In this document: piece by piece, positions 5,187 to 52,932 of the stretch
Position numbering within the stretch: position 1 is the stretch's first letter
How the letters are laid out: the number at the start of each line of letters is the position of its first letter
From: Alphaproteobacteria bacterium
GTDB taxonomy: Bacteria; Pseudomonadota; Alphaproteobacteria; Rickettsiales; UBA998
Direction: 5' to 3'
Length of the DNA stretch: 64,000 nt
Assembly (NCBI GenBank): GCA_004292675.1
Contig: RDXO01000014.1
Location: 34,313 to 98,312, forward strand
Translations under genes and position numbers: made by a program
The notes under the pieces: generated by a model
Told to the model about the DNA's origin: nothing
What the model saw: only the letters and a program-made list of their open reading frames with translations
Databases searched by the model: none

Positions 5187-6005
5187 ATGTCGCATTATCA
5201 AAAAAGAATTTTCATGTTGTCTCATCGTTCATTGCGTATGATGGCTGCCAGTGCATTATGCATCATGATGGGGGCTTCTGCATCTTATGCGACACCCGCC
5301 GAATCTCACGTCACAGAAGCGAAGCCCGATTATGTCACGAAGGGTGAATTTGATGCGATGGTGAATCGTTATTTGATGGATCATCCCGAAGTACTATTGA
5401 AATCATTGGATAATATGCAGCGCGCCACCCAAGAAAAGGGCTTGGAAGAATCGAAAAAAGCAATAGAAGGACAGAGTGCTAATTTATTCTCTGATTCGAC
5501 ATTGCCAACCTTTGGGGCAAAAGATGCGCCTATTCCCGTGGTTGAGTTTTTTGACTATAATTGCTCAGCCTGCAAATATATGTTTAATCCGATTGATGCC
5601 GTAAAAGCGAAACAAATCCAAGATGTACGCATCATTTTTGTAGAGTTCCCTATTTTCGGAGAAAAATCCGAAGAACTCGCAAAAATTGGTCTTGCGGTAC
5701 ATGCATTAAAGCCTGATGCTTATTATGGTTTCCATAGTGCGATGATGAAACATAAGGGAACGATCACCAAAGATCAAGCTATTGATTATGCTGGAAAAGC
5801 TGGTATTGATCGTGCGGATTTAGAAAAAGAGTTGCTTTCTCCTGCGATTGCAGCGCGCTTGAAAAAGAATCAAGATTTAGGTCATGCGATTAATGTCACA
5901 GGTACGCCGTTTATGGTGATTGGCAAAACTCCTATTCCTCATGCCTTGGATGCCGAACATCTTGACAAACACATTGAAAATGCACGTGCTGCCTTGAAAA
6001 AATAG
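5187..6005 (+). CDS. Periplasmic DsbA-family thiol:disulfide oxidoreductase
   Basis: 272 aa. It has a signal-like MMAASALCIMMGASASYA and a thioredoxin-fold CSAC (CxxC) site. An alternative ATG lies at 5214. Confidence 0.8.
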   Translation: MSHYQKRIFMLSHRSLRMMAASALCIMMGASASYATPAESHVTEAKPDYVTKGEFDAMVNRYLMDHPEVLLKSLDNMQRATQEKGLEESKKAIEGQSANLFSDSTLPTFGAKDAPIPVVEFFDYNCSACKYMFNPIDAVKAKQIQDVRIIFVEFPIFGEKSEELAKIGLAVHALKPDAYYGFHSAMMKHKGTITKDQAIDYAGKAGIDRADLEKELLSPAIAARLKKNQDLGHAINVTGTPFMVIGKTPIPHALDAEHLDKHIENARAALKK

Positions 6006-36534: not shown

Positions 36535-36680
36535 GTTGTGTTCGTTTTTCTACTGCTGTTTGCTGCAAATGGTGGTTTGCTGCGCTTCCGCTACTCATGT
36601 ACCTTAAAGTACACTCCGTTGCGGTTCTCGCAAACCTGCCATTTTCGCTAGTACATCAGCGAAAACTCAACACAACCTAG
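36532..36680. mobile_element. Family D MITE-like element, copy D1 (149 bp, terminal inverted repeats)
   Basis: The TIRs are taggttgtgtt and aacacaacctag. By hand alignment it has about 21 mismatches and no indels over about 150 positions against D2. It begins at the dps stop codon, and its right end supplies the last codons and stop of the minus-strand gene 36667-38004. Confidence 0.8.
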
Positions 36681-38004
36681 ATCGCATCCGCCATGCACGG
36701 GCGCAAATGATCATAAACCATAAGCCACCAAGAATGGCAAGCCCACCACCAGTGCTTTGAATGCGTAGGAATAATTCCGCTTGGTTCATGGCTTCACTGA
36801 CGGCGTGCGGTGATTTACGCTGCACGCCATAACCACCTGATAAAAATAATCCCATAATATGCATGATTTGCCCTATTAGCAATAATCCCATTTGCCACGT
36901 AATGGAGCGATGCAGACGGTGAATGGCTGCTCCGTGTGATGCAAGCACATAATAGCTTGCCCCCATCATCGCAACGGTTACACCAACCAATGATCCATGA
37001 TAATGTGCAGGGATTTGTACGGTAATGCCACGAATCATCACAGCAAAGATGCCGCCTAGCCCAAATAGGAGTAGGGAACACCACAAAGTCACCCCATAAG
37101 GGGAACGTAGCGATGGCGCAAAGCGATGCTTGCCACGCGCTGCATCATAAATAAATTGCGCCACGCACACAATGGGAGGAATACCGCATATCCACCCCAT
37201 CATCCGAGTGAAGGCGGTGCGAAACTCACCGCTACTCACCTCATAGAACGCATAAGGCAGTGGCGTGAGGGCGAGGGCAATGAGGGCTACCCAAAAATAA
37301 CGCTGGTACGGGGTAAAAGAAAAGCCTTCGACGCTTGCCTTTGCTAGAAGCAGCCAGCATAACATCATCGCTTGCACCCAAAGAAATTGCAGCACATGCC
37401 CACCGCCCCAAAAAACCATCTCATAATAGAGTTCACCCGTCATGCCTTCATCACGCAAAGCAAATGCGCTTGCACTAAAGCACGCACATGCAGCCATCAA
37501 GAGGGCGTGGCTGCTACGATTCACCGTGCGCACGATAGGGCATAAGGCAGGTTGCCCAAGTGTGGTAAAGAAATAATAGCTTGATTGCAGCAAGCACAAA
37601 GCAAGCATCGCACCAAGTGCAATGAAAAATAGCGGATGTTCGAGGGTGGGGATATAATTATTCAAATGGGGCAGGGCAGTGCTATCAAGGCTTGCAAGCG
37701 TCATGCATACCATAGATAGGATCATCAATAGCCGTGATCCGCCATCCCACCATGGTACGCGCTGCTTATGTGGGTGCGTATCATGCGAGGAAAACATGAA
37801 CATAATGCACAAAAACCATACGCTGATCGATAGATTGACATGCGCAATGAGGCTACGACGAAATAAAGTCGCAAAAAGTTCAATCGATTTCACCGATGGA
37901 TGCCACGCCACCGCTACAATAATGGAAAAAATGCCCGAAAGTGCGAGTGCTGCAAGCCCAACAAAGAGCCAAGGAAGTTGGAAACGTGTCGAAGATGTGA
38001 TCAT
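36667..38004 (-). CDS. Stand-alone polytopic membrane protein with heme-copper-oxidase subunit I-like motifs
   Basis: 445 aa with about 12 TM segments. VFWGGGHVLQF resembles HCO helix VI and PAHYHGSLVG resembles helix X HxH. There is no helix-VII HH pair. The last 4 codons and the stop lie inside repeat D1. Confidence 0.5.
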   Translation of the reverse strand: MITSSTRFQLPWLFVGLAALALSGIFSIIVAVAWHPSVKSIELFATLFRRSLIAHVNLSISVWFLCIMFMFSSHDTHPHKQRVPWWDGGSRLLMILSMVCMTLASLDSTALPHLNNYIPTLEHPLFFIALGAMLALCLLQSSYYFFTTLGQPALCPIVRTVNRSSHALLMAACACFSASAFALRDEGMTGELYYEMVFWGGGHVLQFLWVQAMMLCWLLLAKASVEGFSFTPYQRYFWVALIALALTPLPYAFYEVSSGEFRTAFTRMMGWICGIPPIVCVAQFIYDAARGKHRFAPSLRSPYGVTLWCSLLLFGLGGIFAVMIRGITVQIPAHYHGSLVGVTVAMMGASYYVLASHGAAIHRLHRSITWQMGLLLIGQIMHIMGLFLSGGYGVQRKSPHAVSEAMNQAELFLRIQSTGGGLAILGGLWFMIICARAWRMRSRLC

Positions 38005-38083
38005 GGGATGTAGCTAACGCACAACCGCCTAGAATGCAAGCAATTTGCTGTACATTCGAGCAAAAACATCGTATAAAAATCTG

Positions 38084-39106
38084 ATGATGGATACGGATAC
38101 CTTACCGAAATGGATGCAGCGTTGGCTTTATGGTGCTGCTGTGTTGGTGTTGATGATGGTCTGCATTGGCGGGCTAACGCGCTTGAGTGAATCGGGGCTA
38201 TCCATTGTGCAGTGGAAGCTGGTTACGGGAACATTGCCGCCGCTTTCTCATGCCGCATGGATGCAAGAATTTCACGATTATCAAGCCACACCCGAATTCC
38301 TGAAAAAGAATTTTTCTATGAATCTTGCGGAGTTTAAGCAAATTTTCTGGTTGGAATATTTGCATCGCTTGCTGGGGCGTATCATTGGATTATGGTTTGT
38401 CGTGCCGACATTCTATGTGCTGCTACGCACTCATGCCACGCCAGTAATCAAAAAACGCATGGTGCTGATGAGTGCTTTGGTATGTATGCAAGGTGCTATC
38501 GGTTGGTATATGGTGCGTAGTGGATTGGTGGATGTGCCGTGGGTGAGTCCGTACCGTTTGGCGTTGCATCTTTCTATGGCAGCATTGCTCTGGTGCGTGG
38601 TGATTCGTACCCTGCTTGTCTCGCATAGTTCGCATAAAGGATGGGGGGTGTTTGCCATGATGTGGGGGCAATTAGTGCTTGGAGCATTAGTGGCAGGGCT
38701 TGATGCGGGGTATACTTATAATAGCTTTCCTCTGATGGATGGGCAGTGGATGCCGCCGCATATGATGATGCTGCACCCATGGTATCGTAACTTTTTTGAG
38801 CATATTCCTATGGTGCAATTTCTGCATCGCTGGTGGGCGTTTGTGGTGCTTGCGGGGGTGTTCCATCAGTGGTTGCGCGATCCCCATAGCCGATCAGCAC
38901 GCATTGTGTTGGCGGTGCTGCTGGTGCAAGTGATCCTTGGTATTGCAACTTTGTTGAGTGTGGTGCATATTGCGCTTGCAAGTGTGCATCAAATTATGGC
39001 ATTTATTCTGCTTGCGGTACAGTTAAGGCACATCTATCAGCCTGTGCAGACGAATATCCCGCATTCTAACCACAATAACCTCACTGCTAAGCCTCATTTT
39101 GTGTAG
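38084..39106 (+). CDS. ctaA: Heme A synthase (COX15/CtaA)
   Basis: Start at ATG 38084. It has [25 protein letters not shown] and conserved His residues in TM segments, and is about 340 aa. Confidence 0.85.
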
Positions 39107-43864: not shown

Positions 43865-44013
43865 TCATACGTGTTTTTATGATTGACGTAGCCGTGATAA
43901 TTATTTATGATAATTAACGAAAAAATATGTACATCTAGGCTTGCATCATCGTGCAAAATTGTGTACATAGTAATGCTGATGAGATGTACGATAATCACCC
44001 TGTGGAGAACATT

Positions 44014-45723
44014 ATGACCCTGAGTTTGCAACTGCCCATTCAAGAGCTAACCATGCGCCCGATCATTACGGTTGTTGGTGTGGGTGGCGCAGGTGGCAAC
44101 GCCGTGAATAACATGATTTCCGCCAATCTTGAAGGTGTGAAGTTCGTGGTTGCCAACACTGATGCACAAGCATTAGATAGCGCGCTTTCGGATCGTACTA
44201 TTCAATTAGGACGCGCCTTAACGCAAGGGCTTGGTGCGGGTGCAACCCCACAAATTGGTGAGCAAGCCGCCGAAGAAGCAGCCGAAGATATTTTTAACTC
44301 GATTGCAGGAAGTCATATGGTGTTCGTCACCGCTGGTATGGGGGGCGGTACGGGAACAGGTGCAGCACCCGTTGTGGCACGTATGGCACGCCAACAAGGC
44401 ATGTTGACCGTGGGTGTGGTGACGAAGCCGTTCCAATTTGAAGGTGCGCGCCGTATGAGCATCGCTGAACAAGGTATTGCGGAGCTACAAAAATATGTTG
44501 ATACGCTGATTATCATCCCGAATCAAAACCTATTCCGCCTTGCTAATGAAAAAACCACCTTTGCGGATGCGTTCCGTATGGCGGATGAAGTACTGCATTC
44601 TGGCGTGCGTGGCGTGACTGATTTGATGGTGAAGCCGGGGCTTGTTAATCTTGACTTCGCTGATATTCGTACCGTGATGCAAGAAATGGGCAAAGCGATG
44701 ATGGGAACAGGCGAAGCAACAGGTGATAAACGCGCATTGCAAGCGGCAGAAGCTGCAATCTCCAATCCATTGTTGGATGATGTATCCTTGAAAGGGGCGC
44801 GTGCAGCACTCATCAACATCACAGGCGGTAGTGATATGACGCTCTATGAAGTGGATGAAGCTGCCAACCGTATTCGTGATGAGGTTGACCCCGATGCGAA
44901 TATTATCTTTGGTTCTACATTCGATGAATCGATGCAAGGTACGATGCGCGTTTCTGTGGTTGCAACGGGTATTGACGGTGAAGCCGTGCGTCAAGAAATG
45001 GAAGCCCATGCGAATCGTGGCAAACCTTCCTCGCAAGCTCCAGCAGGTTCTAAAGCAACCTATAAACCTACCTCCGCTTATTATGTGGGGCGCAAACCTC
45101 AAGCGATGATGCATAATGCACCAACAACACCTGCAATGACACGTCGTGATGACCATGCGGATGATATGAATCCACCGATGATGCGTCAGGCTCGTCCTGC
45201 ACCATCAGCGTTTTCTGCTCCTTCAACGTCATCATCTGCATCGATGCGTCCGACGGAACAAAATGTTTTGCCAACTTCGGCGCAGCCCGTGCCGCAATCA
45301 TTTGAAGCGTCACAGGATCATGGACATCATCATCATGATCTTGATTCTTTTGCCGATGAAATTTACGATGCGCCACCAGCATTTGTAAGCCCAGCAACAC
45401 CACAGCAACCACCCGTACAGCGTCAATTTCAACAACCCAGACAAGCAGCACCACAGCATCACAATAATGATCATTATGCGGAACATGCGCCAAGCCAACA
45501 TGCAGGTTCTTCTTCACTTAACTTATTGAATCGTATTGCAGATGTTGGACGTTCTTTTAGTGGGCGTTCGCAGGAAAGTCAGGCAAAAGTGACAACGGGG
45601 CGTAATCATGATGCACGTCATCAAGGCTATGAACGCGAAGAATATCGTGATCAAGAAGAAGATAGCCATTATGAAATCCCTGCATTTTTGCGCCGTTCTG
45701 ATAAAAATAGTGATGCTTCATGA
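44014..45723 (+). CDS. ftsZ: Cell division protein FtsZ
   Basis: Start at ATG 44014 ([34 protein letters not shown]). It has the [10 protein letters not shown] tubulin signature, a long P/Q/S/H-rich linker and a C-terminal EIPAFLRR peptide. Confidence 0.97.
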
Positions 45724-47564
45724 ACCCAGAAGAAGCTCAGGCTTCGTTTGAAAAAATCCTAAGTGCCACCGCACGATCCATGATTGGCGTGGATGCGAAG
45801 CGCGATTTTTCGCTGCAAGGAAGCGTCCCGCCATCCTTATTAAGCCATCAAGCGCACGCCTTGCTTGGATCGAATCATGAGATGGTACGCGGTTTATGTG
45901 ATCGCATTGCGGTTGCAGGAAAATATCATCACCCCCTCACACATCATTCTTACGCCCCTGCGGATTCCATCGCACGTGCGGTATATGATGCCTTGGAAAT
46001 CGTTCGCGTGGAATATCTTGGGGGGCGTTATCTTTTAGGTGCGATGCGTAATATGCAGCAACAATGGTTGCATCATTGCGCTTCTTATGTACCGCATTAT
46101 CTTGAGGCATCCCCCCAGCAACCACTCATGCAGCAAGGGCAAATCCCCGTGGCGGAAATGGTGCGCGCTTTGTGGCTTGAGCATATCTATCCTGAAATAC
46201 CTATAGAACCATCATTACAACCATGGCTTAAAAAGTGGCGTGAACCATTAATGCGGGTGATGCAGCCCTATTTTACAGCACTGCGTGATGCCATGGAGAA
46301 TCCTAAGATTTTTGCGCAAGAAGCCGCTCGATTAGTGCAGCGGTTGAGTACTCTCGATGGTGCAGGAGAGGGTGGAGCGCATGAGCAAAATGATGGAACT
46401 ACTCAGAACGCACAACAGGGAGCTGCACAGAACGAAGCAGCATCTTCGCAACCTTCTGAAGCTCCGCCAGAGGCAGCAGAAGCATCATTAGACGATGATG
46501 GGGAAGAATCCTTGTTCGGGCGTGCCTCATCTACGGAGTCTGACGCTGGTGCGGATGGAGCGGCAGAAGCACAGATGCCGAGTGATGTGGCAGGTGAACA
46601 GCCCTATGCATCTTCCCCAATCGTGCCAACCTCATGGACGGCACAGCAGGAATATGCCATTTTTTCTACCCAACATGATGAGATTATTCGCGCCGAGCAT
46701 TTGGCATCACCAGAAGAATTGATACGCTTGCGTGCCGAATTGGATAAAAAACTTGCACAGGTGCAAGGCACATTTGCACGGTTGGCAGCGCGCCTGCAAC
46801 GGGTGTTGATGGCACGGCAGATACGCCATTGGACGTTCGATGAAGATGATGGCTTGATTGATAGTTCGCGCCTCGCACAATTAATTTGCAATCCGCTGCA
46901 TCGTCATATTTATAAGCGTGAACATGATGATGCGTCGAAGGATACTATTGTTACCTTGTTGCTGGATAATTCTGGATCGATGCGTGGTCGCCCCATTACG
47001 ATTGCAGCACTATCCTCCGATATTTTGGTGCGCGTTTTGGAGCGTGCGGGCATAAAAGTCGAGATTTTAGGGTTCACCACCAAAGAATGGAAGGGAGGCG
47101 CGCATTATAAAGCATGGGTTGCAGCGGGAAAACCCGCCCATCCCGGACGACTTAATGATCTCCGTCATATAATTTATAAATCCGCCGATATGCCATGGCG
47201 ACGGGCGCGTAGCCATTTAGGATTAATGCTCAAAGAGGGTGTGTTAAAAGAGAATATCGATGGTGAAGCCTTGGTTTGGGCGTATCAACGATTACGCGCA
47301 CGGCATGAAGAGCGCAAAATCCTGATGGTCATTTCCGATGGTGCGCCCGTTGATGATGCAACGCTTTCTGCCAATCACCCCGCTTATTTAGATAAGCATA
47401 TACGTTCCGTGATTCAGCACATCCAAGATGAAGGCGCGATTGAATTGGTTGCCATAGGCATTGGTCACGATGTCACACGCTATTATGATCGCTCCCTATG
47501 CATCAAGGATGTTGCTAAATTAGGAGAAACGATGACGAACGAACTCGTATCTTTGTTTTCTTAG
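45720..47564 (+). CDS. cobT: CobT-like vWA-domain protein (cobaltochelatase CobT family)
   Basis: 614 aa with an acidic central region and a C-terminal vWA domain with an [15 protein letters not shown]-type motif. Its ATG overlaps the ftsZ TGA (ATGA at 45720-45723). Confidence 0.8.
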
Positions 47565-48380: not shown

Positions 48381-49949
48381 TTATGCTTTGGTATGTTTTT
48401 TTGTTATGGCTTCACCAATACTACGTGGTAAAGGCAGAGGTTTTTCTATGCGACCTAAAATAGGCAAAATCACAAGGAAATAGCCAAAATAATATGCCGT
48501 TGCTAATTGTGAAATGAGCGGATTCGTCCAAAAAGTAGCAATTTCTTTGGTGGTTGACCCATCCGCGTGTGTAACGGTGACAAAGCTACATGCATGGGCA
48601 TCTTGTCCTAAACATCCATCCGCAGGTGCAGCACCCATCCAGCCAAGGAATAAGCCGTTGAATACAAACAACCAGAAGAACGGACGAAACATAGGACGGA
48701 AATTGCCACTACGAACTTTTGAAGAATCCAACCACGGTAAGAAGAAGAGTACGATGAGCGATCCGAACATGGCAAGTACACCGCCCAATTTGGATTCAAT
48801 AATGCCTTCAAAGCACATAATCTCCCCTTGCGCATCCGTCGTACATGCCGATCCTGTGAAGCCAACAATCCCAGCAAACACTAATAAACCACCAAGCCCA
48901 AGCACACCCATGGGGATCATCATCGCAGGATGAAAAGCATTTATAGGGTTGAATAAGGATAATTTATTCGCTTTTGCAGCTTTTTTGGATAACATTAAAC
49001 CAAAAGCCGCGATAGCGATTCCCGGTATGATAAGCGGTGTATTAAAGGTGATAGCACGCAAAATCGCATAGAATGGCAAGAAGTACCATTCAGGCACAAT
49101 ATGCGCGGGTGTCACCATCGGATTAGCTTCGATGTAATTATCGGGATGCCCAAGATAATTAGGCGCAAAGAAAGTGAAATAACCAAACACCAAGAAGAAT
49201 ACGCCAAAACCAAAGAAATCTTTTGCCGTATAATAAGGATGGAACGGCACAGTATCCTGCTTACCTTTCACATCAATGCCCAAAGGATTGCTTGATCCAT
49301 GTTGATGCAAGGCAAGAAGGTGCAACATCACGACGGCAACCAAGATAAGCGGCATGAGGTAATGCAGTGCAAAAAAGCGATTCAGCGTTGGGTTATCCAC
49401 CGAGAACCCACCCCACAACCATGTCACGATGCTTTCACCAACAATAGGGAAGGCAGAGAAAAGGTTGGTGATCACTGTTGCACCCCAAAAGCTCATTTGC
49501 CCCCATGGCAACACATAGCCCATAAAAGCGGATGCCATCATCAGGATCAAAATCACGATCCCTAACCACCATAGAAGCTCGCGTGGTGCTTTATATGATC
49601 CATAATAAAGCCCCCGAAAAATATGAATAAATACCACAAGGAAGAACATGGATGCACCGTTGGCGTGCATGTAGCGTACCAACCAACCATAATTTACATC
49701 ACGCATAATATGCTCAACGCTTGAAAAAGCGAACTGCACATGCGGCGTATAATGCATGGCGAGGAAAATGCCTGTTAAAATTTGCGATACGAGAACAATC
49801 CCCGCAATCGAGCCAAAGTTCCAAAAATAATTCAGGTTACGCGGAGTCGGATAATCAACCAACGTATGCTGTAGGGTTGAAAAAATGGGCAGGCGGTAAT
49901 CCACCCATCCGATAATGCCTTTTTGTTCTGGTTGATTGGTTGAACCCAT
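48381..49949 (-). CDS. petB: Cytochrome b of the bc1 complex (unusually long, 522 aa)
   Basis: It has the canonical heme-ligand His pairs, [14 protein letters not shown] and the [13 protein letters not shown] motif. There are two insertions relative to canonical cytochromes b, at aa ~301-386 and ~443-478. Confidence 0.95.
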
Positions 49950-51333: not shown

Positions 51334-51861
51334 TTACGCGCCACGCTCAAATGCAGAACGACGCTCAGCAGCATAAAGCATGAGTGAGATTTTTTCTTGG
51401 CGTTCTTTTAATTCTTGCATATGTTTTTTGTTCATGATGCGTTCAAGAGCCAAATCAACATAATCTACTAGCACGCTAATGATGATTTCTACTTGTAGTT
51501 TAATTTTTTCAACAATCGCATCCGCAACATTGCGCACGCCTTCACCATAATTTGCGCCCATAGCTTTAGCACGCTCAGCGTAGGCATCCATGGCAATATA
51601 AATACGGCGGAGCGCACCTTCAATCTTCATGCGTCGTGTCGCACCATTTTGTTTTTTCCCCGCAACTTCAATAAACTCTTCACACAAAACATCAGCAGAT
51701 TCACCAATTTGCTCAATGAGTGGTTCTACCACTTCAAGTTGCGCTTTTGGGTCAAGCACATCTGCACCCTCAACGGTGGCTACCATAGCCTCCGCCAGAT
51801 CATAAAGTTCTGCAATTTTGTGATATTTAAGTTCCAGTTCCGAGAGCGTTTCTTGGGTCAT
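51334..51861 (-). CDS. Hypothetical acidic all-helical protein
   Basis: 175 aa. It is 9 nt upstream of the pseudouridine synthase gene and 39 nt downstream of the 343-aa orphan. Confidence 0.5.
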   Translation of the reverse strand: MTQETLSELELKYHKIAELYDLAEAMVATVEGADVLDPKAQLEVVEPLIEQIGESADVLCEEFIEVAGKKQNGATRRMKIEGALRRIYIAMDAYAERAKAMGANYGEGVRNVADAIVEKIKLQVEIIISVLVDYVDLALERIMNKKHMQELKERQEKISLMLYAAERRSAFERGA

Positions 51862-51900: not shown

Positions 51901-52932
51901 TTATCGTGTATTAGTCAAGACTCCTTGTTCTGATTGCGCACGGTTTGCCATCATTTGTTCGGCGCGTGTGACAGCATCAGTGAAGATGGAGTTATTGGTT
52001 GGGGTGATAGTATTTTGCCCTTGTTGTTGTTCTGCGACGCGAACACCTTTTTCTGCAGCTATTTTATCGCGCCAAAAATTCTCATCTCTACCTTGGGCAG
52101 GGAGTGCAGTTATTGGCTCTGGTTCTGTTATCATTGGTGGTTGTTCAGTGACGATCTCACGGACGGGAGCATAGGTGGCATCCATCACTTGTTTGGGGAT
52201 GACGGGAGGGCTATCGAGTGTGATTGCGCCGACTTCTTTACCATCGGGTGTGCGGTTTCCCGGTAAAGTGCCGACTGATAATTTTTGCCCATCCGCCATG
52301 GTGACGTTAGTGGAAGTCAAGCCAGATGCAGCAATACCTGCGGGTAGTACGGCACTTGTAGCAGGGGTGCTTGCCGTTATGTGTGCTTGTTTTTGCTGTG
52401 CTTCACGTTCTTCTTTTGTGCCACCCAATAATGTAGTGGTAGTGCCTTCTGCAAAATCCCCAAGATGCGTGGTAATGAATTTCCCTGTTGTTACTTTCGT
52501 GGCTAGTTCTGCTGCAATGCCGATTGGTCCTGTGACGCTGAGTAGCACCCCTCCAGCTTCGACTGCTGCGCGTGCCACTTTTCCAGTTGCCCCAACATGA
52601 TCGCCTTCTTTCAGTTCATCCGCTGCACTGAGCAAGTGTGAACCCGCCGTAACCCCCGCAAGGATGCGATCAACGCCTGATATTTGCGTCATGCCCTCAA
52701 CAGCACCTTGCAGCACACCTGAATTAGTAGCACTAGCAGCAGTTTTGGCAGCCTCCCCAACTATAGGCACTGCCCCTGCTAATGCGTTTGCGCCATTCGC
52801 TAAGCCAAGCTGCATGGCAGGACCTATCGCTTCAGGAACGCGCAATAACACACTCGCGTTTTTGGTGAAACCCGTCAATCCTTCTTCGGAGGATTCTTCT
52901 TTTTCTTTCTCTAATGGTGCAGTGTTGTTCAT
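51901..52932 (-). CDS. Hypothetical Gly/Ala/Thr-rich protein
   Basis: 343 aa with no signal peptide. The N-half has small-residue (G/A-x3-G/A) helical stretches. The C-half is P/Q/T-rich. Confidence 0.5.
   Translation of the reverse strand: MNNTAPLEKEKEESSEEGLTGFTKNASVLLRVPEAIGPAMQLGLANGANALAGAVPIVGEAAKTAASATNSGVLQGAVEGMTQISGVDRILAGVTAGSHLLSAADELKEGDHVGATGKVARAAVEAGGVLLSVTGPIGIAAELATKVTTGKFITTHLGDFAEGTTTTLLGGTKEEREAQQKQAHITASTPATSAVLPAGIAASGLTSTNVTMADGQKLSVGTLPGNRTPDGKEVGAITLDSPPVIPKQVMDATYAPVREIVTEQPPMITEPEPITALPAQGRDENFWRDKIAAEKGVRVAEQQQGQNTITPTNNSIFTDAVTRAEQMMANRAQSEQGVLTNTR

Follow-up and report, generated by a model that had tools for sequence, protein, structure and literature searches.

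The 64,000-nucleotide stretch of DNA analyzed here (Alphaproteobacteria bacterium, Rickettsiales, UBA998; GenBank assembly GCA_004292675.1, contig RDXO01000014.1, positions 34,313 to 98,312), which we refer to as the window, encodes a cytochrome b, PetB, that is predicted to contain 10 transmembrane (TM) helices. Few membrane proteins have been studied as much as cytochrome b or are as well conserved, and in bc1 complexes its plan of eight helices is regarded as invariable. PetB departs from this plan by two insertions, the first of which is predicted to form a TM hairpin between the ef helix and helix F. Our data favor the reading that PetB is probably a normal Q-cycle cytochrome b to which a supernumerary TM hairpin has been fused, together with two periplasmic modules that are probably stapled by disulfides, and that these additions have a structural role.

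An intact bc1 cytochrome b core

PetB is encoded in the middle of a petA-petB-petC operon (Table 1), in which the three genes lie on one strand and are separated by gaps of 8 and 13 nucleotides, the arrangement of bc1-type petABC/fbcFBC operons. The protein matches the Pfam models PF00033 (274.9 bits), PF13631 (159.5 bits) and PF00032 (112.1 bits), all above their gathering thresholds, with the PF00032 match divided in two by the first insertion. In an alignment of 83 sequences the heme-ligand pairs H95/H109 and H196/H210 of helices B and D are invariant, the histidines of the bL and bH pairs being spaced 14 residues apart, as are the PEWY motif of the Qo site (P286, E287, W288, Y289) and the Qi-site residues K243 and D244; H217, also of the Qi site, is nearly invariant (90% or more). 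The single 522-residue open reading frame (ORF) sets PetB apart from the split cytochrome b6/subunit IV type, the subunit IV models of which match it weakly (27.5 bits against a cutoff of 127). A preliminary description of this DNA, made from the sequence alone, had called petA and petC ordinary, and their lengths, Pfam matches and similarity to the PetA and PetC of relatives agree with this. The catalytic core of PetB is intact and the protein is a bc1 cytochrome b on every catalytic criterion, differing only in helix number: all of helices A–H are present and two further helices are predicted. The predicted ten-helix plan makes PetB a variant within the bc1 cytochrome b family and does not exclude it.

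Two insertions enlarge PetB

A phmmer search against the PDB matched PetB to the Paracoccus/Rhodobacter cytochrome b in three blocks, comprising query residues 9–304, 382–446 and 477–514. Insertion 1 (residues 305–381, nt 48807–49037) faces 11 residues of the Paracoccus protein, and insertion 2 (residues 447–476) faces a single one. This three-block alignment bears out the earlier proposal of a cytochrome b enlarged to 522 residues by two insertions, the coordinates given then (nt 48792–49049 and 48516–48623) being right within a few codons and the quoted peptides correct. The four cysteines placed in the insertions at that time, C369, C379, C446 and C454, are indeed there and are the only cysteines in the protein.

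The same 522-residue protein is present under five public accessions, on separate contigs of metagenome-assembled genomes (MAGs). In addition, the GTDB species representative (contig RDZH01000017.1, ‘Alphaproteobacteria bacterium PH2015_06S_46_36’; L001 below) has a petB of identical length at 93.2% nucleotide identity. In the comparison of the two genes the ratio of nonsynonymous to synonymous substitution rates (dN/dS) is 0.01 in the N-terminal core (residues 1–300), rising to 0.091 in insertion 1 and 0.053 in insertion 2. These values indicate that both insertions are translated and under purifying selection, if less tightly constrained than the core.

Insertion 1 contains a predicted transmembrane hairpin

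Kyte–Doolittle hydropathy peaks inside insertion 1 at residues 299–322 (1.8) and 339–370 (2.2), values as strong as those of the canonical helices. An AlphaFold2 model computed on the 83-sequence alignment (mean predicted local distance difference test score (pLDDT) 81.8; predicted TM-score (pTM) 0.81) contains helices at residues 307–327 and 341–365, of 21 and 25 residues, which we term TM-I1 and TM-I2. They are connected by a short loop with a small helix at 335–339, and the pLDDT of 90–97 over residues 301–380 exceeds that of much of the canonical core. The basic stretch KKAAKANK (residues 322–329) covers the end of TM-I1 and the first two residues of the loop. In cytochrome b the end of the ef helix and the start of helix F both lie on the periplasmic (P) side of the membrane, and two helices added between them would therefore form a hairpin with a cytoplasmic loop.

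Conservation was assessed in an alignment of PetB and its 120 best hits (121 sequences), on which, together with one motif scan, our estimates of breadth rest. The connecting loop is net positive in each of the 91 sequences that carry the hairpin, with a mean charge of +3.7 (4.6 Lys/Arg against 0.9 Asp/Glu), and the outer ends of the hairpin average −0.9. Because the loop is basic in all 91 carriers, the positive-inside rule agrees with its cytoplasmic placement. Hydropathy, the AlphaFold2 helices and the charge of the loop thus all support the 10-TM cytochrome b that the preliminary description had predicted.

The carriers form a class, defined in the present analysis and typically of ~480 residues, that is recognized by an RA[IVF][TV]F[DN]xP entry, two hydrophobic segments, a basic loop and a G-x6-G-x2-G pattern, all of which PetB possesses (loop charge +4). 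Conservation of the entry motif is high among carriers, with F302 at 100%, D/N303 at 96%, P305 at 96%, W307 at 89% and G310 at 91%; PetB departs from the class consensus by having Ile in place of Trp at position 307. On TM-I2, G353 (84%), G360 (96%) and G363 (100%) are spaced such that all three fall on one side of the helix, a one-sided glycine spacing that is typical of tight helix–helix packing. A profile of the hairpin showed no similarity above noise to PetA, PetC or the rest of PetB, so that an origin by internal duplication or from the PetA/PetC anchors finds no support.

The loop of some carriers has a further feature, which is absent from PetB. In nine of the 91 (P0023, P0034, P0043, P0065, P0068, P0077, P0078, P0095 and P0105) the cytoplasmic loop contains a conserved C-x3-C-P(L/F)G(I/L)LP motif at the equivalent of PetB residues ~322–345, and in some of these, as in RACSTVCPFGILPVFAGFLPKKQCGWSC, a second C-x3-C follows about 18 residues on. 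Such a set of four cysteines, lying on the reducing side of the membrane, hints at a possible metal site.

The periplasmic modules and their cysteines

The preliminary description had treated insertion 1 as one unit of ~85 residues. Its length and hydrophobic helices stand, but the alignment divides it into two nested events: the hairpin occurs in 91 of the 121 sequences, and the 18-residue tail that follows TM-I2, which the alignment places at residues 364–381, is confined to PetB and P0001–P0004, five protein clusters in all. The tail cysteines are narrower still and occur only in PetB, P0001 (a 98%-identical cluster) and L001, which represent one species. In the AlphaFold2 model the tail strands 369–371 and 377–379 are paired, and C369 and C379, located at their outer ends, are thus predicted to be cross-strand neighbors.

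Insertion 2 lies in the loop between helices G and H (GH loop), where 21 of the 121 sequences have an insertion; this distribution is that of the first 120 hits alone. One type begins ‘DGC’ and has a second cysteine 5–8 residues on (7–8 except in P0072; P0040, P0054, P0072, P0092, P0106, P0112 and P0114), several of its carriers being without the hairpin, while another has the pattern ‘SFCxGxxxC’ (P0023, P0045, P0076 and P0089). Cysteines in the GH insertions number either zero (8 cases) or two (13 cases), never one. The loop of PetB corresponds to the ‘DGC’ type lengthened by about 14 residues and is modeled as a β-hairpin with strands 456–460 and 466–470 (pLDDT 85–89). By these sequence comparisons, insertion 2 appears to be a longer version of a recurring alphaproteobacterial ‘DGC-x7/8-C’ GH-loop module; its presence and its cysteines had been described correctly, but it is not peculiar to this protein. 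A profile search with the ‘DGC..C’ segment returned 83 short C-terminal fragments, none of them with the motif, and metagenomes scanned for proteins closely related to the C-terminal half with its cysteines gave only three distant matches (42–44% identity).

Topology and charge support the earlier placement of both Cys-bearing segments on the periplasmic side. A DsbA-like thioredoxin-fold protein (PF01323, PF13462), encoded at 5187–6005 (+) of the window, suggests that the organism has periplasmic disulfide-forming machinery. The cross-strand cysteines of the model, the zero-or-two counts in the GH insertions and the DsbA-like gene make disulfides plausible, and the most likely arrangement would be two intra-module bonds, C369–C379 and C446–C454. 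The four cysteines and the longer GH loop are a minor, species-level decoration.

Table 1 Features of the petABC operon and of the PetB insertions (positions are those of the window)
Feature	Residues	Position	Strand	Remarks
petA, Rieske iron-sulfur protein	178 aa	49958..50494	-	Ordinary length, ordinary cluster motifs
petB, cytochrome b	522 aa	48381..49949	-	Single uninterrupted ORF; Pfam, PDB sequence matches
petC, cytochrome c1	252 aa	47609..48367	-	Ordinary
Insertion 1, whole	300–383	48801..49052	-	Relative to minimal ‘AILRA-IPDKLGG’ cytochromes b
Entry motif ITFNTPL	300–306	49032..49052	-	Conserved; class consensus ITFDIPLW
Predicted extra helix TM-I1, periplasm to cytoplasm	307–327	48969..49031	-	AlphaFold2 pLDDT 90–97; hydropathy
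Cytoplasmic connecting loop (predicted)	328–340	48930..48968	-	Short helix 335–339
Predicted extra helix TM-I2, cytoplasm to periplasm	341–365	48855..48929	-	Conserved Gly face G353, G360, G363
Periplasmic tail (predicted), 18 aa	366–383	48801..48854	-	C369/C379 on paired strands, predicted β-hairpin
Insertion 2, GH loop	446–476	48522..48614	-	C446-x7-C454, then predicted β-hairpin

Distribution and lability of the hairpin

The insertions at the hairpin site of the 91 carriers measure 52–87 residues, and all 91 sequences are from metagenomes, where their public annotation is simply ‘cytochrome b’. When 185,579 GTDB species genomes were scanned for the entry motif, 41 stretches emerged, eight of which were confirmed by tblastn with the window insertion. 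All eight are MAGs, designated ‘Rickettsiales bacterium’, ‘Alphaproteobacteria bacterium’, ‘Pseudomonadota bacterium’ or ‘uncultured Azospirillum sp.’, and no cultured organism is among these confirmed carriers. A profile of the insertion by itself, searched against a library of 1.84 billion representatives, gave two hits, one of them a fragment of the class and the other a spurious repeat protein; clustering at 50% probably merges enlarged and canonical cytochromes b, which makes this search uninformative on breadth. The same profile had no match below 1e-5 in a 90%-cluster database, apparently a limit of the word-index candidate step. The preliminary description had counted it against the claim if such insertions were common and already characterized in the clade. 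They are common, but we found no paper describing them and no solved structure that contains them.

To what extent the hairpin follows the phylogeny of the core was judged from 372 core columns with both insertions masked and 200 neighbor-joining bootstraps, a comparison based on a single conserved protein. The core of PetB is 84–87% identical to those of the canonical 405–411-residue proteins P0005–P0015, 82–89% identical to those of the carriers P0002–P0004 and about 78% identical to those of the typical 480-residue class. PetB and the carriers P0001–P0004 were monophyletic in 0 of 200 bootstraps, whereas these carriers and the near non-carriers formed a clade in 143. The carrier P0003 (494 residues) paired with the non-carrier P0010 (410 residues) in 129 of 200 bootstraps, their cores being 92.7% identical. 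Carrier and non-carrier loci have rluB-petABC synteny in common, and the Rieske protein and cytochrome c1 of the non-carriers have the same lengths as those of the window and are as similar to them as the carriers’ are. Supply of the hairpin in trans was rejected locally, as ORFs within about 4 kb of petABC in the non-carriers L009–L011 gave no match to the hairpin profile.

Because carriers and non-carriers are intermixed at up to 92.7% core identity, the hairpin is dispensable for a working complex. The whole hairpin has been lost or gained between very close relatives, and loss is the more parsimonious course since the five carrier clusters share the unique tail.

Two further variants were encountered among these proteins. 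The hairpin-carrying MAG L007 (JBGTBD010000013.1) encodes a PetC (ORF from locus position ~3528) with an insertion of ~95 residues between the equivalents of residues 158 and 162 of the window cytochrome c1. P0102 (659 residues), which is found among the close canonical relatives and lacks the hairpin, is a fused cytochrome b-c1 (PF00033 and PF02167), a kind of fusion known from Bradyrhizobium-type fbcH.

Comparison with known systems

The closest solved structures are those of the cytochromes b from Paracoccus denitrificans (2yiu/9fks), Rhodobacter sphaeroides (2qjp/8asi) and Rhodobacter capsulatus (1zrt), with a core sequence match of E about 1e-147. Foldseek comparison with the Paracoccus/Rhodobacter proteins gave TM-scores of 0.86–0.88 on target length at 46–47% identity. 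On query length the TM-score against the PDB falls to about 0.71, as the extra parts have no counterpart there, and neither Foldseek nor phmmer found a solved structure that covers the hairpin helices. PetB and the Paracoccus/Rhodobacter proteins have the heme ligands, the PEWY motif and the petABC operon in common. They differ at the two insertion sites. In Rhodobacter and Paracoccus the ef-F linker is roughly 20–25 residues long and does not cross the membrane. Its head ‘RAFTADV’, of which ‘FTADV’ resembles the head of the entry motif, and its end ‘GIIDAKFFGV’ align with the two ends of insertion 1. Between them, the middle of 11 residues in the eight-helix proteins is replaced in PetB by 77 residues, with two more predicted TM helices and the Cys-bearing tail. 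The GH loop has one residue at the site where PetB has 30. Since both ends of the linker align with both ends of insertion 1, the hairpin looks like an expansion of an indel hotspot between ef and F.

The hairpin of the ~480-residue class (for example P0019, P0029, P0034, P0040 and P0068; from ‘Rickettsiales bacterium’ and ‘Alphaproteobacteria bacterium’ MAGs) is homologous to that of PetB, is located at the same position and agrees with it in entry motif, basic loop and Gly face. The class lacks the 18-residue tail and mostly also the GH insertion, at ~78% core identity to PetB. Actinobacterial QcrB (535–573 residues; 7q21_B, 6hwh_b) is likewise an over-long cytochrome b. It is a distant one, matching with E between 1e-15 and 1e-10 over residues 71–262, and its extra length is probably a C-terminal extension rather than an ef-F hairpin.

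Supernumerary membrane elements are found around several bc complexes, where they are peripheral helices on a complete three-subunit core and are dispensable for the basic reaction (PMC10041115). They include the N-terminal helix of Aquifex cytochrome c1, R. sphaeroides subunit IV, mitochondrial QCR8/9/10 and PetG/L/M/N of the b6f complex. The extra TM helix of Aquifex cytochrome c1 is treated as a fused supernumerary component, and subunit IV of R. sphaeroides, a separate single-TM subunit, can raise activity and is not essential (PMC10041115). None of these elements is an internal hairpin within cytochrome b, and the likeness of the PetB hairpin to them would be a functional analogy, with no relationship in sequence. 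Our searches of the full-text literature on the evolution and structure of alphaproteobacterial bc1 found no description of a 10-TM alphaproteobacterial cytochrome b.

Proposed role and alternative explanations

As we envisage it, the chain would leave the Qo-site ef helix and, before reaching helix F, cross to the cytoplasm via TM-I1, form a short basic loop and return to the periplasm via TM-I2. The hairpin would pack by its conserved Gly face against the lipid-exposed side of the E/F/G/H bundle and act as a fused supernumerary subunit that stabilizes or shields the E–H face and leaves Q-cycle chemistry unchanged. To this the species would have added two periplasmic β-hairpin modules, one being the tail that follows TM-I2 and the other the enlarged GH loop. 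Each module would most likely be held by a disulfide of its own (C369–C379 and C446–C454), presumably made by the periplasmic Dsb system. Several points weigh against this proposal. The entry motif (F302, D/N303, P305, W307) is highly conserved and directly follows the Qo-lining ef helix, a pattern that could mean that it takes part in Qo-site function or Rieske docking and is not a mere scaffold. A neighbor-joining tree of one conserved protein does not distinguish repeated loss from gain by recombination. Moreover, very few sequences underlie the AlphaFold2 confidence values for the species-specific tail and the long GH insertion.

Two alternatives concern the nature of the extra sequence itself. 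An artefact of assembly, frameshift or gene calling has in its favor that the sequence is from a metagenome-type assembly, and nothing else; it is hardly conceivable in view of the unbroken reading frame with canonical sequence flanking each insertion, the recurrence of the protein in five accessions, the relative at 93% nucleotide identity with equal length and dN/dS below 0.1 in both insertions, and the presence of the hairpin in 91 of 121 aligned sequences. The refutation by an assembly or frame artefact that the preliminary description had allowed for is itself effectively refuted by the accessions, dN/dS and flanking sequence. It is also very unlikely that the hydrophobic stretches are surface or re-entrant periplasmic helices of an 8-TM protein. 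The hydrophobic core of the first is only about 17–18 residues long in PetB and includes two prolines, as this explanation would have it, but both stretches equal canonical TM helices in hydropathy, the modeled helices of 21 and 25 residues have pLDDT above 90, and in all 91 carriers the connecting loop is basic, with flanking ends that are slightly acidic.

Other explanations accept the hairpin and assign it a different role. It could be a docking module on the outer face of cytochrome b for a terminal oxidase supercomplex or a membrane-anchored cytochrome c, in effect taking the place of the individual single-TM helices by which such interfaces are filled elsewhere. The R. capsulatus CIII2CIV supercomplex has an interface made up of TMH5 and TMH7 of cytochrome b and the c1 helix, and two additional single-TM helices, those of CcoH and cytochrome cy, are packed there (PMC7876108). 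TMH5 and TMH7 are sequence neighbors of helix F, where the hairpin rejoins the canonical fold, and the conserved Gly face indicates a specific helix–helix contact; furthermore, the window includes the heme A synthase gene ctaA (38045–39106), hence a heme-A oxidase is present. Yet the Gly face could equally contact cytochrome b itself, very close relatives do without the hairpin, and comparison of carriers with non-carriers revealed no co-varying gene beside petABC and no partner, which leaves docking an unlikely explanation. We hold it just as unlikely that the insertions tune catalysis, with the entry motif and the Cys-stapled loops reshaping the ef-loop region and so altering Rieske head movement, access to the Qo site or superoxide leakage. 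The ef loop is considered the main barrier to movement of the Rieske head (PMC7908018), insertion 1 starts a single residue past the end of the Qo-lining ef helix, with the entry motif as its most conserved part, and topology and charge place both Cys-bearing modules on the periplasmic side. Against this, the reviewed gating segment is upstream of PEWY (Rhodobacter residues 286–292) and the insertion is downstream (PMC7908018), PetA is ordinary in length and sequence, nearly all hairpin carriers lack the Cys modules, and the hairpin comes and goes between near-identical cores. A broader proposal, in which the hairpin and the Cys-stapled modules are no passive scaffold but together form a functional module, is a somewhat fainter prospect. 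The module would be either a built-in interface organizing a bc1-oxidase or bc1-cytochrome c supercomplex in this uncultured lineage, or a redox-sensitive disulfide cap beside the Qo/Rieske docking region; as part of that joint proposal, the cap would adjust Rieske head movement to the periplasmic redox state.

Implications

If PetB is, as we favor, a cytochrome b with a fused structural hairpin, it looks like a structural add-on rather than new chemistry, and the ten-helix form would seem noteworthy, not startling, to a bc1 specialist. The form is common in a large group of uncultured alphaproteobacteria and has come or gone between proteins with ~93% core identity, and thus provides a natural experiment on adding and removing supernumerary membrane elements in a respiratory complex. 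Cytochrome b is also used as a phylogenetic marker for alphaproteobacteria and for mitochondrial ancestry, and alignments and trees can be distorted by an unrecognized indel of 55–85 residues that is discordant with the phylogeny of the core. The species-specific Cys pairs, if they form disulfides, would be a rare case of disulfide-stabilized loops on cytochrome b itself.

Genomic context

Head-to-head with ctaA lies a gene for a polytopic membrane protein of 445 residues (36667–38004, −). Over its full length it matches COX1 only marginally (PF00115; 36.1 bits, cutoff 34.8), it has no NCBIfam match and no PDB sequence match, and it may represent a heme-copper-oxidase-like protein that has diverged strongly. 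Two ORFs, of 175 residues (51334–51861, −) and 343 residues (51901–52932, −), are located between rluB and a gene for a GyrB/ParE-type topoisomerase; the longer one is rich in Ala, Gly and Thr, and neither matches Pfam or NCBIfam. Rfam models identified no RNA family in the window. Directly downstream of the pet operon, on the opposite strand and in an ordinary housekeeping context, a long FtsZ (590 residues; 43951–45723, +) overlaps by 4 nucleotides with a CobT-like vWA protein (45720–47564, +). Across the entire window there are housekeeping and biosynthetic genes, including serA/serC, folD, glmU, pnp, polA and selO.

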